A DNA stretch of 11,945 nucleotides from a virus (Duplodnaviria; Heunggongvirae; Uroviricota; Caudoviricetes), in IMG/VR virus record IMGVR_UViG_2681813261_000018; one strand, 5' to 3'. Shown one piece after another: positions 2,074 to 11,781 of the stretch (positions are counted from its first letter, which is position 1; each line of letters starts with the position of its first letter). The position numbers and the translations under genes are program-made. The notes beneath the pieces were generated by a model, which made no database searches, was not told the origin of the DNA, and worked only from the letters and a program-made list of their open reading frames with translations.

Positions 2074-2099
2074 AACATTGATAATGGCGGTCACAATTT

Positions 2100-2119
2100 G
2101 ATTCTTTTCTATAAGAATC
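2100..2119 (+). terminator. AT-rich hairpin after the 244-aa gene (weak terminator candidate)
   Basis: GATTCTT / AAGAATC 7-bp arms with a 6-nt loop; no T-run follows. Confidence 0.3.
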
Positions 2120-2209
2120 CGTTGATCGCCACTACTCCCCTTCCATACCCGCAATCACATCCTTAAATATCAATAAGTTATAGTTGTTTATACAATCAAG
2201 AAAACAACT

Positions 2210-2940
2210 GAATAACAGATCAACGAAACATCAACGCTTTCACCCGATTTGGTCTAAAAAATTGACGTTTTCACACATCACTGCTTATACCCGTAATTCT
2301 ACGCAGCAGACAGCGCCACAGCGTCCAATTTTCACCACAGACGACCCAACACACTACCAACAAAAACACACGCTCAAAATCGCTCCCGTTGCGTTACACA
2401 ACCATATAAACAACTTATTTTCAGGCATAACAAAACAACTAAATAACACACATGCCATTCCCCAAAACAACCAACCTCTTTATGTCAGGCTACCGAAAAG
2501 ACCCACCTCTTCTCCCCAGGCTACCGGACAACCAACCTAACTTTCACAGGCAATCCGAAAACATTCATACGCGCGATACCCACGACACGCCATTACCCAA
2601 ACAGCGAAGAAACATCAGAATCACTGAAACCCCAACGAAGCCTGTAACCGCAAGGTTTCTCTCAATCCCTAAAGACACGAAACATAACAATCACGGGAAA
2701 CGCCATTACCCAATACACGAATAACTACAAAAGCCTTTCACACACTCCAGACAAACAACTCAAACACAATAACGAAAGGAATCGCCCACCTGCCATTACT
2801 CCATACACGGAGAAGAACAATCACCAAAACGACGAGAACACCCCATAGAAGAACCACCGCAAAACTAACGAAACCACATACACCGACAGGGAAAACAACA
2901 CACCCAATTCACCAACAGAAATAGTCGCCGTATAGAGCGT
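2210..2940 (+). other. A+C-rich, G-poor non-coding tract of about 730 bp with degenerate internal repeats
   Basis: Counting by eye in 60-nt blocks gives about 5-18 percent G and about 75-80 percent A+C on the plus strand. GCCATTACCCAA-type motifs recur near 2454, 2590, 2702 and 2791. The track ORFs here are proline/threonine-rich and lack ribosome-binding sites. Confidence 0.5.
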
Positions 2941-3134
2941 TCTGGAAGGAGTGAGCATTAACGCCTATAGAGAGGTTGAGACAGATAAAACACGAAGAAA
3001 ACACAACATGTATAGCGAACAAGACAGGTATGTATAAGTGGGGAGGGAATGAGGGGTGTCGCCTCCTTTTTCGTATTTATTCAACTCCTGATTTTATCCC
3101 CCGTAACACCCCTACGGTCAGCCTTCGGTCCATA

Positions 3135-3265
3135 CAGGGAAAAGGTTGCATCCCGCTACAGAAACGGCTGGGTTGCCTTCGGGGAACGGCTGGGGATTTT
3201 CAGGGAAACGGTCGAGTTGCCTGTGTGGATTTCGGGAAAAGGCTCGATGCCGGTTCAGAAACGGC
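3135..3265. repeat. iteron-like direct repeat cluster 1 (core GGGAAACGGC / CAGAAACGGC; full unit about 22 bp)
   Basis: Core copies start near 3135, 3158, 3181, 3201, 3233 and 3256, spaced 20-32 bp. Extended units CTGGGGATTTTCAGGGAAACGG (3190-3211) and GTGTGGATTTCGGGAAAAGGC (3222-3243). Confidence 0.55.
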
Positions 3266-3584
3266 GGCGTACCGGTATAGCGAGAGGGAGAGTTGCGGCT
3301 GTCCACCTGTAATGTGCGGGAAGAAGAGAGGCGCTCACGTGCAGGCGAACTTACTTACCGCTGGATTCCCTCTGAATGCCCAGCTACAGCGTAATTGTGC
3401 CAGACAGTCAGCGGGTCACAATCGATTTCAGTAGGTTTTCGGGGAGAGGATTATTCTGCCCACCAGCCACCTTCGGCCACTAAATCAGAATAATGTAAAA
3501 AGTGTACTCGGTACTGAACCTGAAAACTCACTGCCAAAACCACATTCACCGGAATAAAATCCTTTTTCGCCTGTGCGTTATTGC

Positions 3585-3616
3585 GATAATAACACCATCA
3601 AGAAAACATGTTGTTT
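3585..3616 (+). promoter_or_regulatory. shared promoter/leader element (GATAAT + AACACCATCAAGAAAACATGTTGTTT)
   Basis: Matches the elements at 947-981, 5725-5757 and 6209-6240. The ATG at 3608 sits inside the conserved palindrome and is therefore not taken as the gene start. Confidence 0.55.
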
Positions 3617-4084: not shown

Positions 4085-4100
4085 GAGAAAACAAGTTGTT
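4085..4100 (+). promoter_or_regulatory. partial leader palindrome GAGAAAACAAGTTGTTT
   Basis: AACAA-G-TTGTT core upstream of the 4113 start; a TATTAT -10-like hexamer lies at 4069-4074. Confidence 0.4.
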
Positions 4101-4112
4101 TACGGAGTTGTG

Positions 4113-4985: not shown

Positions 4986-4994
4986 AAGCCCGAT

Positions 4995-5014
4995 AACAAT
5001 TTGTTTTCTGCCTT
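4995..5014 (+). promoter_or_regulatory. conserved 20-mer AACAATTTGTTTTCTGCCTT (copy 2 of 2)
   Basis: Identical to 918-937; preceded by CGAT, which gives a GATAAC -10-like hexamer. Confidence 0.5.
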
Positions 5015-5724: not shown

Positions 5725-5757
5725 GATAATTACACCAACAAGAAAACAACATGTTTA
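5725..5757 (+). promoter_or_regulatory. shared promoter/leader element (GATAAT + TACACCAACAAGAAAACAACATGTTT)
   Basis: GATAAT at 5725-5730. Near-identical to 3585-3616 and 6209-6240. Confidence 0.55.
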
Positions 5758-6057: not shown

Positions 6058-6062
6058 AGATT

Positions 6063-6086
6063 AAGGCCACCAATGCTGGTGGCCTT
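6063..6086 (+). terminator. perfect 10-bp-stem hairpin AAGGCCACCA-ATGC-TGGTGGCCTT
   Basis: 5 bp after the stop codon; followed by AAATGAC as at 5616. Confidence 0.5.
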
Positions 6087-6120
6087 AAATGACCATCCTG
6101 TTTCCCGCAGGCTAAAAACA

Positions 6121-6190
6121 CCAACCTCTTACCTCCAGGCAACCGATAAACCCACCTGTTCCCGTCCGGCTACCGCAACTTTCCACTTTG
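6121..6190 (+). repeat. about 70-bp intergenic repeat, copy B (copy A at about 2471-2547)
   Basis: Shares CCAACCTCTT, CAGGC-ACCGA-AA, CCCACCT and GGCTACCG blocks, in the same order, with 2471-2547. Confidence 0.45.
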
Positions 6191-6240
6191 ACGCCTTATT
6201 CGTACAACGATAATTAACACCAACAAGAAAACAATTTGTT
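6188..6240 (+). promoter_or_regulatory. promoter TTGACG (-35) - 15 bp - GATAAT (-10) followed by the shared leader ACACCAACAAGAAAACAATTTGTT
   Basis: -35 at 6188-6193, -10 at 6209-6214; leader palindrome AACAA-T-TTGTT. Confidence 0.55.
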
Positions 6241-6261
6241 ATTTACGATAAGGAAATAATC

Positions 6262-6744
6262 ATGAATTTTATCGCTACTGTAAACGCACCCGCACATGGC
6301 AATATCGCTGTAACGTTCTCTGACATTGAAAAACGAGTACTTGGTGCATGGCGCGACAATGAGACGGTAGAACTGTCAGCACAAGAAAAATGCATTATTG
6401 CACGCGACATCATTGGCAATCGTCGTTACTCGCGGGTATTTGAGAAAGCGTATGTGGTAAATTCTGGATTCGGAACGTTCGTCTTTCCGGTGCGCTCCGG
6501 GCGATTCTGCCAGTCCAAGCTGATTGAGTTCGCTACGCAGATTTCTGTCTGGATTAAAACTCAATCGTCGTTCAAATTTTCCGACGATGAAGCAGTATCG
6601 CAGGGGATGCGGATCGCCAACAATGCGATTAAATGCAAAAACATTACGTATACCGCTGGCGTTGATACATGGAAACTGTTTTGCGCTAACTTTATGCTGA
6701 ATGTATACGCAAGCAACCGCATCCACATCCTTGATGGCGTGTAA
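6262..6744 (+). CDS. hypothetical protein (160 aa)
   Basis: ATG at 6262 with AAGGA 7 nt upstream. Product MNFIATVNAPAHGNIAVTFSDIEKRVLGAWRDNETVELS... Confidence 0.7.
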   Translation: MNFIATVNAPAHGNIAVTFSDIEKRVLGAWRDNETVELSAQEKCIIARDIIGNRRYSRVFEKAYVVNSGFGTFVFPVRSGRFCQSKLIEFATQISVWIKTQSSFKFSDDEAVSQGMRIANNAIKCKNITYTAGVDTWKLFCANFMLNVYASNRIHILDGV

Positions 6745-8054: not shown

Positions 8055-8199
8055 NNNNNNNNNNNNNNNNNNNNNNNNNNNNNNNNNNNNNNNNNNNNNN
8101 NNNNNNNNNNNNNNNNNNNNNNNNNNNNNNNNNNNNNNNNNNNNNNNNNNNNNNNNNNNNNNNNNNNNNNNNNNNNNNNNNNNNNNNNNNNNNNNNNNN
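8055..8199. other. masked / undetermined sequence (145 N)
   Basis: Run of N; content cannot be assessed. Confidence 1.
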
Positions 8200-8231: not shown

Positions 8232-8575
8232 NNNNNNNNNNNNNNNNNNNNNNNNNNNNNNNNNNNNNNNNNNNNNNNNNNNNNNNNNNNNNNNNNNNNN
8301 NNNNNNNNNNNNNNNNNNNNNNNNNNNNNNNNNNNNNNNNNNNNNNNNNNNNNNNNNNNNNNNNNNNNNNNNNNNNNNNNNNNNNNNNNNNNNNNNNNNN
8401 NNNNNNNNNNNNNNNNNNNNNNNNNNNNNNNNNNNNNNNNNNNNNNNNNNNNNNNNNNNNNNNNNNNNNNNNNNNNNNNNNNNNNNNNNNNNNNNNNNNN
8501 NNNNNNNNNNNNNNNNNNNNNNNNNNNNNNNNNNNNNNNNNNNNNNNNNNNNNNNNNNNNNNNNNNNNNNNNNNN
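8232..8575. other. masked / undetermined sequence (344 N)
   Basis: Run of N; content cannot be assessed. Confidence 1.
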
Positions 8576-8609
8576 ATTGAAAGAGTTTTAAATGAATGGC
8601 ATGTAAAAT

Positions 8610-10221: not shown

Positions 10222-11781
10222 CTAATCTCGTTTCAGAACTCCAAAATCGAATGCTCCATCAATAGGCAATACACCTTCTGCAAAGCCAGGTGTGGTGTCG
10301 ATGATGTGTTTTCGCTCATAAGAGTGAGACAACAGGTATTTGTTGCTAATGTCAATGAAATCAGTGATAAAACACACGTTTGCCTGATTTTTTTTGGCTC
10401 GTAAGCCACGACCGACACGCTGCCTCATTTCAACTTCTGCTTTCCCACCACCAGCAAGAATGACCGCACCAACGCTTGGCACATCAACACCGACATCCAG
10501 AATAGTCGAGCCTATTAAAACATCTATTTCTCCAGACGCTAAACTGTTCAGCTTTGCTTGCCTTGTCGCCTGGTTAGATTCCCCATAGATGAAATCAACT
10601 CTAAGACCTGACTCCTTCATCATCTCCATCAGGATTTGCCCGTGGCGTTTAAGACGAACCAGAGTCATGCAGTTGAGTGAATGTTGCTTATAAAGCAATG
10701 CCTCGCGCACTATGGCCTCGTTACGTCCCAAATTATACACGATCCCCAACTGATAAGCCTTTTGGTAGGCGGTGCTCATACCAACTCTAAAATTGAGGTG
10801 TTTGTTGGCAAGTTCGGCCTTGATTCTGGCCTCGTCTGGCTTGTAGGCAACTTTATGATAAAGGAAGTACGGCTTTGCCAGAATGCCTCGATCAATCAGG
10901 TACTTTTCTGTGACTTTAATTTCAATTCGCCCGGCCACCGCCATCAGGCGCATGTTGGCTTCCGTCGAATCCTTCATGAACGGCGTGGCTGTAAGCGCCA
11001 GACGATAGTCTGCGTTCACACATAATCTGGCGATGTCATAGAAATTTGAGCCTGAAGACTCATGCGCCTCTTCCAGAATAAGAAGAGAGACACTTGAAAG
11101 GAAGCGTTTCACCAACTCCCGACGTTTGAGGTGGTAGCTTTTCTTATCTGGTGTTGCATCGCGTGGTGGTTCTTCGAGGAAACTTGCAAGAGTTTGAACT
11201 GTAGCGACGTTGATATGTCGTGATACCTGGAACTCACCCGAGCCAATGACTCCAACCTTTTGGTCTTTTAACCACGGTTCGCCATTTTCGGCGCGGTAGT
11301 CGATGGATCTCTGGAAGTTTTCGGCCATTTGAAACATCAGAACAGAGCGGGTTGTTAAAAATAATGTCATTCGACCGATACGTGCAGCTGCTTTGCAGGC
11401 AACGTTAGATTTCCCGCCACCAGTAGCGATCTGCGCAATCATCATTCCCTCTCGAACCAGTGTTTCCACAGTCTGATCCTGATACGCATAATCAGGATTG
11501 TATGGGAATGGGTTAACCGCAGGATTTGGTTTACCAAGCGCCGGGGCTTTGTCTTTGCGGATATGAACACATTTGATGCCCGCCTTGTTCAATTTCGCCG
11601 CTACAGGCTTGGCAAAGCCTGCAGGGAACGAGTTTTTACTCCAGTTGAACATTGTGCTTGTGCCCTTCCAGTCGCCAGTCTCGACTTCGTAGCTCAACAT
11701 CTGTTGCACCAGTTGCTTTACCTTGTCATCTGCGCCAGAAATAAGCGCATTAACTGCGTTAGATACAATCCGAACAGTCAT
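10222..11781 (-). CDS. superfamily-2 helicase (DEAD/DEAH / ResIII-like), 519 aa, with an N-terminal extension of about 100 aa of unknown function
   Basis: Ordered helicase motifs: Walker A QIATGGGKSNV; motif II LILEEAHES (DEAH variant); motif III LTATPF; motif VI QRVGRGLRA. ATG at 11781 with AGGAAAGAGG just upstream. Longest ORF in the window. Confidence 0.85.
   Translation of the reverse strand: MTVRIVSNAVNALISGADDKVKQLVQQMLSYEVETGDWKGTSTMFNWSKNSFPAGFAKPVAAKLNKAGIKCVHIRKDKAPALGKPNPAVNPFPYNPDYAYQDQTVETLVREGMMIAQIATGGGKSNVACKAAARIGRMTLFLTTRSVLMFQMAENFQRSIDYRAENGEPWLKDQKVGVIGSGEFQVSRHINVATVQTLASFLEEPPRDATPDKKSYHLKRRELVKRFLSSVSLLILEEAHESSGSNFYDIARLCVNADYRLALTATPFMKDSTEANMRLMAVAGRIEIKVTEKYLIDRGILAKPYFLYHKVAYKPDEARIKAELANKHLNFRVGMSTAYQKAYQLGIVYNLGRNEAIVREALLYKQHSLNCMTLVRLKRHGQILMEMMKESGLRVDFIYGESNQATRQAKLNSLASGEIDVLIGSTILDVGVDVPSVGAVILAGGGKAEVEMRQRVGRGLRAKKNQANVCFITDFIDISNKYLLSHSYERKHIIDTTPGFAEGVLPIDGAFDFGVLKRD

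Follow-up and report, generated by a model that had tools for sequence, protein, structure and literature searches.

What is the function of an A+C-rich, G-poor, apparently non-coding segment, more than 700 bp in length, that occupies positions 2210-2940 of IMG/VR virus record IMGVR_UViG_2681813261_000018? The 11,945-nucleotide (nt) stretch analyzed here (hereafter, the window) had previously been interpreted from its letters alone as accessory-island DNA next to metG, and the segment as either a source of unstructured RNA, a DNA-level element or decayed sequence. Matches of the tract to ~108-kb plasmids, to phages Cyrano, CMS-2020a and PhiR41_1 and, at 70% identity over the full length, to Salmonella phage SSU5 identify the element that carries it, as judged by sequence, as a phage-plasmid of Escherichia coli of the SSU5/pHCM2 type. 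The base composition of the tract is maintained by selection, more than its sequence is. The reading that we tentatively favor, at less than even confidence, is that in SSU5-family phage-plasmids the tract is an untranslated, repressor-controlled, structure-free leader that would load the transcription termination factor Rho.

In the 2210-2940 segment, A, C, G and T account for 0.391, 0.321, 0.126 and 0.161 of the bases, respectively, that is, 71.3% A+C; in 100-nt windows, A+C ranges from 0.62 at the 5' edge up to 0.80 at 2801-2900. The strong strand asymmetry described in the sequence-only reading is therefore real, with the 75-80% A+C assigned to the whole segment being reached only locally. 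The proposed extent of some 700 bp likewise covers a truly skewed tract but misses its beginning, as C-rich, G-poor sequence starts at ~2135; T depletion persists to ~3040. The genome-wide background was taken from the complete genome of phage Cyrano (~108 kb), which is 98% identical to the window. In a sliding-window survey of G content and skew of the kind that had been suggested for this locus, the eight 500-bp windows of the Cyrano genome with the highest A+C all fall in the tract (maximum 0.738; genome mean 0.501, standard deviation 0.032; z ~7), as do the windows with the lowest G. Ordinary intergenic composition can be rejected as an explanation, since the remaining intergenic regions are T-rich with A+C of 0.52 +/- 0.05. 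The genome overall has more G than C on the tract strand, so the tract opposes the genome trend. GC content across 2300-3400 is 0.44-0.58. The Dam site GATC is missing from the tract body (~2297-2940) and from its equivalents in the relatives designated L002, L004, L007, L075, L079, L091 and L093 (none in 8 of 8 lineages, versus ~1.5-2 expected in each under a first-order Markov model); the phage has its own adenine methyltransferase gene.

Comparison with relatives separates the conservation of composition from that of sequence. The non-coding module at 2078-3298 is 67% identical to that of SSU5 over 1.3 kb, adjacent genes being 67-82% identical, and, at 1.2-1.5 kb, it is the largest conserved non-coding region of the genome. 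Among 77 IMG/VR relatives retrieved via a neighboring 160-aa protein, ~65 possess the tract, with A+C of 0.68-0.75. Alignment of 2300-2940 across 18 relatives yields 226 invariant and 472 variable columns; A+C is 66% in the variable columns and 70% in lineage-specific insertions. The commonest differences in the tract are A<->C transversions (130, versus 96 A/G and 108 C/T), in contrast to the flank at 2941-3125, in which transitions dominate. In two distant Klebsiella subfamilies, L091 and L093, the marker protein is only 31-33% identical and the identity of the tract, 54-60%, is near noise, yet the same locus contains 650-900 nt with A.39, C.30, G.16 and T.15. The order of parts is also common to the three subfamilies: a stable stem-loop (-15 to -19 kcal/mol) with no U tract after it; a C-rich stretch of ~80 nt; a pair of GTCAA repeats followed by an A tract and TTGACn-N18-TA(T/C)ACC; the A+C body; a purine-rich and then a G-rich segment; and the promoter of the next gene. 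Within the A+C body, all three contain 3-5 CAGGC...ACCnACC units with a period of ~30 nt and 3-6 GCCAT(T/C)ACCC motifs. Because composition is kept in variable columns, in insertions and in distant subfamilies, and because A<->C exchanges are in excess, it is the composition itself that is under selection.

The tract is non-coding. Its longest open frames shift in position and frame among the 18 relatives (which are less than 93% identical to one another), only 29% of 137 insertions and deletions are divisible by 3, variability at the three codon positions (0.70/0.65/0.66) reveals no three-base period, and searches of Pfam and PHROG with the tract produced no match. The open reading frame (ORF) calls of the depositors conflict, with CYRAN_103 on the plus strand, SSU5_108 on the minus strand and none in the annotation by PGAP. 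The earlier judgment that the tract lacks a credible ORF therefore holds, and both a protein-coding gene and the frameshifted gene remnant envisaged as its alternative can be rejected. None of the Rfam 15 covariance models matched the module in the window, SSU5, L091 or L093.

For RNA made from the plus strand of the tract, prediction gives the lowest degree of structure anywhere in the genome, at -0.09 to -0.135 kcal/mol/nt in 300-nt windows compared with a genome value of -0.265 +/- 0.041, in agreement with the G-depleted, largely unstructured transcript foreseen from the letters; the minus-strand RNA has ordinary predicted structure. RNA consisting of A and C only can form no A-U, G-C or G-U pairs. 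Since the A+C-rich RNA is unpairable, nearly lacks start codons and Shine-Dalgarno sequences and keeps C high and G low over ~650-900 nt, it would be expected to stay naked and, in enterobacteria, to become an entry site for Rho (a Rho utilization, or rut, site). All 78-nt windows of the tract have a C/G ratio of at least 1.5 and 96% of them at least 2 (median 2.7, maximum 7.3), and the zone with C/G > 1.5 is continuous over 774 nt, the next-longest runs in the genome being 220 and 256 nt. The regular-C pattern of RhoTermPredict (C-N11-13 repeated six times) has 42 matches in the tract; the criteria of that program are RNA of at least 70-80 nt with C>G and regularly spaced C (PMC6407284). Mapped Rho-dependent 3' ends have a stable stem-loop without a U tract and C-rich sequence right after it (Dar & Sorek 2018, PMC6061677). 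The tract combines these features of rut regions: C>G with regular C, RNA that is unstructured and untranslated, and a stem-loop without a U tract upstream (2085-2131).

Expression data were available from a published RNA-seq table for LF82 lysogens, which lists values as log2(FPKM+5) (FPKM, fragments per kilobase per million mapped fragments) for five conditions and may not be strand-specific. CYRAN_103, which corresponds to 2184-2540 of the window and to the first 357 nt of the tract, has 0 FPKM in LB and 1-14 FPKM in the four other conditions; in the same samples, the upstream gene CYRAN_102 has 45-587 FPKM and the downstream gene CYRAN_105 has 0-218 FPKM. Lysogens thus contain almost no stable tract RNA, and the edge of the tract is where transcripts from the upstream gene end. 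The drop from 45-587 to 0-14 FPKM at this boundary is consistent with Rho action but is not specific to it. Lack of a transcript combined with lack of conservation had been named as a sign of decayed sequence; almost no lysogen RNA was indeed seen over the first half of the tract, but conservation is strong, so the silence points to repression, or to rapid termination and decay, and not to junk.

The firmest of our inferences is a physical one, namely that an untranslated transcript entering the tract in an enterobacterium would be an ideal substrate for Rho. Under the Rho-loading reading, read-through from the cargo genes would end at the stem-loop and the C-rich zone between 2085 and 2217, with which the RNA-seq drop is consistent. 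Transcripts from the promoter-like element at 2262-2291 would be blocked in the prophage by the phage-wide operators and, if made, would be aborted by Rho within the tract. The G-rich block at 3104-3384 might then be reached only once both repression and Rho termination are relieved, which is speculative.

Similar C-rich, G-poor, unstructured and untranslated RNA is found in known rut regions and long Rho-controlled leaders, such as rutA/rutB of lambda tR1 and the leaders of rho, mgtA and rpoS, and the tract additionally shares with mapped Rho-dependent 3' ends the U-less stem-loop upstream and the steep drop of RNA across the boundary. Among the systems to which the tract has been likened, rut regions are the only ones whose tested defining features are all present in it; Rho dependence itself is a prediction from the sequence. 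Several observations weigh against this reading. Rho terminators need ~100-200 nt, as opposed to the 650-900 nt found here, and the tract, 5-10 times longer than needed, differs from rut regions also in its U depletion, its conserved ~30-nt repeats, its own promoter-like element and the lack of an obviously dependent gene. Insulation of the cargo seems to be complete before 2184-2540, so the tract body is not needed for it, and the downstream genes have their own promoters (3585 and 6212), which leaves an attenuator without an obvious target. A role as a rut site does not explain the conserved repeats, the U depletion or the second repeat array, which lies outside any transcript. The -10 element (TATACC/TACACC) does not end in the T that sigma-70 promoters almost always have, so that 2262-2291 is a putative promoter only; pyrimidine-C (YC) dimers are not enriched beyond composition; and no RNA from the tract was seen in the lysogen data, with the strand limitation given above.

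Table. Features of the tract and its surroundings in window coordinates
Feature	Position	Strand	Basis and remarks
Boundary stem-loop	2085-2131	+	-19.1 kcal/mol, z -5.1; apex UCUAUAAG; no U tract after it
First C-rich, G-poor zone after the stem-loop	2135-2217	+	78-nt windows with C/G of at least 3 at Cyrano 94284-94414 (window 2087-2217)
Degenerate half-copy of the phage-wide operator (AAGAAAACAACTGAATAACAG)	2198-2218	+	L091 has a full palindrome there
Two direct TCAACG repeats 11 bp apart, inverted partners of TTGAC at 2262	2220-2236	+	Relatives
Promoter-like TTGACG-N18-TATACC after an A tract, directed toward A+C-strand transcription	2262-2291	+	Position weight matrix score 7.0
A+C-rich, G-/T-poor body (tract proper)	2297-2940	+	Composition, fold, C/G and ORF tests
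Diverged copy of the standard phage module of TGCGATAAT plus operator (TTGCGTTACA...AAACAACTTATTT)	2388-2420	+	Operator palindrome at 2408-2420; perfect in SSU5
Second half-operator (AACAAAACAACTAAATAACAC)	2428-2448	+	94% identical to 2202-2217; motif nowhere else in the genome
Dispersed GCCATTAC(C/T)C..ACACGGAGAAGAAC motif	2454-2820; starts 2454, 2589, 2702, 2792	+	Repeat search, relatives
Three tandem 31-nt units (ACCnACCTCTT....CAGGCTACCGAAAAG)	2462-2553	+	Repeat search; not listed in the sequence-only reading
Best-conserved block within the tract (CACCTGCCATTACTCCATACACGGAGAAGAACAnTCACCAAAACGACGAGAAC)	2785-2840	+	Alignment of relatives
Purine-rich hinge, A+G 0.60-0.70, with conserved CGCCGTATAGAGCG and GTATAAGTGGG blocks	2925-3060	+	Alignment of relatives
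G-rich block with 6-10 GRAAAMGG motifs (CAGGGAAAAGG, CAGAAACGG and similar)	3104-3384	+	Motif z 4.5-12 versus shuffles in three subfamilies
Second array of 31-nt units, ~2.5 units	6105-6180	+	Conserved in SSU5, pMT1, Klebsiella, L091 and L093

The 5' border of the tract is defined by the stem-loop, which directly follows the stop codon that ends the last cargo gene (1339-2073) and is itself followed by ACUACUCCCCUU. Its arms are invariant within the SSU5 subfamily, and counterpart hairpins with other stem sequences are found in SSU5, L091 and L093 (-14.7 to -17.4 kcal/mol, z -2.8 to -6.6). The apical UCUAUAAG and the GUUGAUC of the right arm are kept, and the remainder of the stem is rebuilt in each subfamily; the positions in relatives are ~3876-3922 in L002, 4642-4677 in L091 and 987-1028 in L093. 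An attC-like reading of this hairpin was dropped, as GTTGATC fits GTTRRRY imperfectly and no integron context has been reported for SSU5. In the C-rich zone that follows, transcripts reading through from the cargo genes would meet what looks like a rut site. Further downstream, the hexamers of the promoter-like element and their 18-bp spacing are kept in the 18 relatives, L091 and L093, with diverged spacer sequences, and the distance between the TCAACG/TTGAC inverted partners is ~31-32 bp in all three subfamilies. No conserved promoter for minus-strand transcription across the tract was found.

The palindrome AAACAAnTTGTTT, which looks like an operator for the main repressor or regulator of the phage, occurs at 18 sites in the Cyrano genome with at most one mismatch, compared with ~0.24 expected by our own arithmetic. 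It usually lies ~10 nt past a TGCGATAAT-type extended -10 element (GATAAT) and 10-25 nt 5' of a start codon, is often preceded by AAG, and is found in the window at 2408-2420, 3604-3616, 4089-4101, 4993-5005, 5743-5755 and 6228-6240, as well as upstream of terS and parA; L093 lacks it. With one full and two half copies of this putative operator in or beside the tract, the unit appears to be wired into the general repression circuit of the phage.

Recurrence of a short motif had been pointed out in the sequence-only reading, with spacings of about 137, 112 and 89 bp, and is borne out here: GCCATTCCCC at the first start in the table and GCCATTAC at the other three are separated by 135, 113 and 90 bp, and ~0.01 exact copies of this 8-mer would be expected from composition by our arithmetic. 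SSU5 has 5-6 copies of the dispersed motif, and GCCAT(T/C)ACCC is present in every subfamily. The tandem units are spaced by 31, 31 and 30 bp, about three helical turns; close relatives differ by unit gains of 31 and 62 nt and by one 56-nt deletion, L009 having five units and L056 four, and the array with a period of ~30 nt in L091 and L093 was judged by eye only. The second array, 3.6 kb from the first, is flanked on one side by a terminator hairpin at 6061-6088 (-20.1 kcal/mol) and on the other by the promoter/operator of the gene at 6262-6744 (160 aa, phrog_1641). The nut site of lambda tR1 is situated among its rut sites. By analogy, the ~30-nt repeats of the tract may be recognition sites for some factor. 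In type III toxin-antitoxin systems, tandem ToxI-like repeats are enclosed by a promoter and a terminator just upstream of a ToxN-family gene; such a system was rejected, as the order at 6061-6262 is terminator, repeats, promoter and the 160-aa protein has no match in Pfam or among Protein Data Bank (PDB) sequences. Control of the plasmid replicon through iterons was rejected as well: a P1-like replicon is located at Cyrano 60000-62600, where 21-bp-spaced iterons (CTCTCTATAGTGGAT) flank repA on both sides, but this motif is different and lies 33 kb off. A natural partial replacement is seen in L094 (Klebsiella michiganensis pRHBSTW-00909_5), in which, at 1029-1529, the middle of the tract is swapped for sequence of ordinary composition with an annotated minus-strand ORF.

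Downstream of the A+C body, the hinge has a counterpart of 210 nt with 78-88% purine in L093. The G-rich block, which is annotated in Cyrano as ORF CYRAN_104 and is revealed as non-coding by its insertions and deletions, is, on the plus strand, the global minimum of RNA:DNA minus DNA:DNA nearest-neighbor energy over both strands of the 108-kb genome (-0.148 kcal/mol/nt, z -3.1). The corresponding position gives the lowest value of the locus in SSU5, L091 and L093 (-0.269 kcal/mol/nt in L093) and ranks within the lowest five in L004 and L007. The minimum free energy fold suggested that the C-rich tract pairs at long range with the G-rich block, but this was rejected (-25 kcal/mol, compared with -27 +/- 6 and -31 +/- 6 for shuffled sequences), and RNAalifold detected no conserved fold in the 5' block and 3026-3345, with almost no covariation within the SSU5 subfamily.

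The hybrid-favoring block is central to the strongest of the alternatives, which we consider possible but rather doubtful, namely that a lytic replication origin is served by a primer or R-loop transcript whose leader is the tract. As proposed, the promoter at 2262 would fire on induction and the structure-free RNA would stay on its template or re-invade it, forming a hybrid at 2925-3384 that the phage RNase H and the replisome would convert into a DNA start; the 31-nt and GRAAAMGG repeats would serve as iterons for a putative origin-binding protein. The genome-wide optimum for an RNA:DNA hybrid at 3104-3384, repeated as the locus minimum in three relatives, and the purine-rich block right after the tract, which is kept in every subfamily, both fit this proposal. 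The A+C body itself, by contrast, is only mildly R-loop-favorable (z -1 to -1.6), and the energetics on the minus strand are unfavorable. The putative promoter and, several hundred nucleotides on, the G- or purine-rich segment predicted to favor the hybrid resemble the layout of ColE1 RNA II, T4 oriF/oriG and the mitochondrial light-strand promoter with its conserved sequence blocks (LSP-CSB). However, ColE1 RNA II is highly structured, in contrast to the structure-free leader here, T4 origins are ~100 bp long and have an unwinding element, and known R-loop origins have no comparable compositional tract.

Helically phased tandem units with a second array a few kilobases off are also found in lambda ori, P4 ori/crr and the P1 oriR/incA iterons; the arrangements of P4 ori/crr and SPP1 oriL/oriR are comparable to the paired repeat arrays of the tract. 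Genes for T4-like UvsW, UvsX/RecA and UvsY, a gp32-like single-stranded DNA-binding protein, RNase H, a helicase and a primase are present in the genome, in which no recognized lytic initiator or lytic origin was found. That the module is the largest conserved non-coding one of the genome and contains operator sites also counts in favor of an origin. The absence of an identified initiator protein counts at the same time against an origin. Unlike iteron origins, the phased repeats are accompanied by no adjacent initiator gene, AT-rich region or enrichment of DnaA boxes, and the true RepA iterons are unrelated. At the GC content of this region there is no AT-rich unwinding element; DnaA-box enrichment, Chi sites and an inflection of cumulative GC skew were all negative, and a DnaA-box array, Chi sites and a replication skew switch were rejected as explanations in their own right. 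Rho, moreover, would be expected to abort such a transcript unless countered.

Loss of the module is informative with respect to its role in the plasmid state. It is wholly lost in Yersinia pestis pMT1 (L090, NC_004838; 6078-8000), L062 (4604-5724) and L087 (3586-4758), and insertion sequence (IS) elements are seen at the loss junctions in pMT1 and several IMG/VR relatives (IS1541, the IS3 family and a Mu-type transposase). Since pMT1 and the IS-disrupted relatives persist as plasmids, the module is dispensable for plasmid maintenance, which is in line with a lytic origin. The tract-less relatives are uninformative as a test of an insulator, because they are IS-mediated deletions (L062 and L087) or the degenerate pMT1.

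A broader idea, which we rate as unlikely, joins elements of the above: an unfoldable and untranslatable RNA polymer would be a phage device for lytic growth, acting either in trans as a decoy for Rho, another host factor or a nuclease, or in cis as the Rho-gated leader, prone to thread back, of a transcription-primed origin that ends in the purine/G-rich block. Composition, not sequence or folding, would be decisive for such a device and the ~30-nt repeats would be docking sites.

It seems quite unlikely that the tract instead works as DNA, with repeats whose function is to bind proteins and with strand skew as a by-product; it would then be a regulatory hub, an activator platform or a centromere-like site. 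The second 31-nt array would fit such a role, as it is unlikely to be transcribed from its place between an intrinsic-terminator-type hairpin and a promoter and yet is conserved in all subfamilies; so would the helical phase of the units, the constant ~31-32 bp between the GTCAA/TTGAC inverted repeats with an A tract between them, and the ParB-like genes that lie a few kilobases downstream of the tract. It leaves unexplained, however, the 66-70% A+C between motifs and in insertions, the excess of A<->C exchanges and the structure-free transcript from one strand only, and the RepA iterons of the plasmid have a different motif.

Less probable still is that the tract yields, during lytic growth, an RNA decoy or sponge whose naked A/C scaffold would titrate, in trans, a host single-stranded RNA-binding factor (Rho, a ribonuclease or a defense sensor). 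Like CrcZ/CrcY of Pseudomonas and CsrB/RsmZ, the tract is non-coding, several hundred nucleotides long and rich in repeated motifs, and CrcZ is also A/C-rich with its motifs single-stranded; as in known sponges, an unstructured scaffold presents 3-6 copies of each of two conserved motifs. The dedicated promoter-like element under phage operators, the polymorphic copy number of the 31-nt unit and a length of about nine Rho-binding sites agree with this role. The defining motifs of such RNAs, in contrast, are not enriched over shuffles in the tract (AANAANAA and (ARN)n for Hfq or Hfq/Crc, GGA for CsrA, and ACA), the z values of the Hfq and CsrA motifs in six relatives being -1.7 to +2.1 with a mean of ~0 and only GGA in L079 reaching +2.1, and sponges of the Hfq, CsrA or MazF (ACA) type were rejected on these grounds. 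There is no Rfam match and no abundant or stable transcript in lysogens (0-14 FPKM), unstructured RNA would be expected to be short-lived, and the hairpin at 3036-3085 is not significant as a 3' terminator (z -0.5). No antisense targets were detected elsewhere in the genome; the search returned chance 12-mers only, and the tract was rejected as an antisense regulator of other phage genes. Finally, a functionless remnant of decayed genes and duplicated promoter regions, one of the options of the sequence-only reading, is rejected as extremely improbable: parts of the tract do resemble phage promoter/operator modules and the upstream region of 6262-6744, and some relatives have lost it, but its identity to SSU5 equals that of neighboring genes, invariant columns are numerous (226), composition and part order persist where sequence similarity is gone, the substitution spectrum is not neutral, and protein-family homology is absent.

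As to its genomic setting, 243 of 5426 complete E. coli genomes (4.5%) carry the tract on plasmids of ~108 kb, at up to 98.6% identity, and none has it on a chromosome. In a plasmid collection, 836 records match it, mostly from Klebsiella (428), Escherichia (224) and Enterobacter (90), followed by Salmonella (49), Citrobacter (25) and Cronobacter (9). Positions 20-832 of the window hold the 3' end of a copy of metG, a plasmid-borne methionyl-tRNA synthetase gene of which only this end lies within the window, followed by a DUF5983 gene, a gene for a 244-aa coiled-coil protein (1339-2073) and ~1.5 kb without genes. The coiled-coil gene is CYRAN_102, one of the highest-expressed phage-plasmid genes in LF82 lysogens (up to 587 FPKM). 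Beyond the gene-free region lie a run of small genes without assigned function and a minus-strand gene for a DEAD/UvsW-type helicase (10222-11781); the genes neighboring the tract are all on the plus strand. The small neighboring proteins have no Pfam or NCBIfam match, their PHROG matches are all of unknown function, and the 160-aa protein, the only one compared with PDB sequences, had no match there. Runs of N (masked or unsequenced) at 8056-8199 and 8233-8576 fall in the region of minus-strand genes, and ORF entries in these runs are artefacts. Upstream of the tract, the genes vary by genus (metG and apbC in E. coli, others elsewhere), and the small genes downstream are conserved; the tract therefore marks where cargo meets core and does not belong to metG, which is variable cargo of the E. 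coli members only, and the earlier framing as a metG-flanking accessory island does not stand.

We found no description of the tract region in the searchable literature on SSU5, pHCM2 and phage-plasmids. SSU5/pHCM2-type phage-plasmids are common, their cargo includes resistance and virulence genes, and their regulation and their lytic replication have hardly been characterized. The tract provides a rare clear case of selection on base composition over hundreds of nucleotides, and it makes directly testable the old idea that naked RNA is exploited by cells and phages, be it in Rho loading, R-loop formation or decoys. Located at the exact boundary of variable cargo and conserved core, it offers a handle on how the cargo is insulated from the lytic program and, possibly, on where lytic replication starts.

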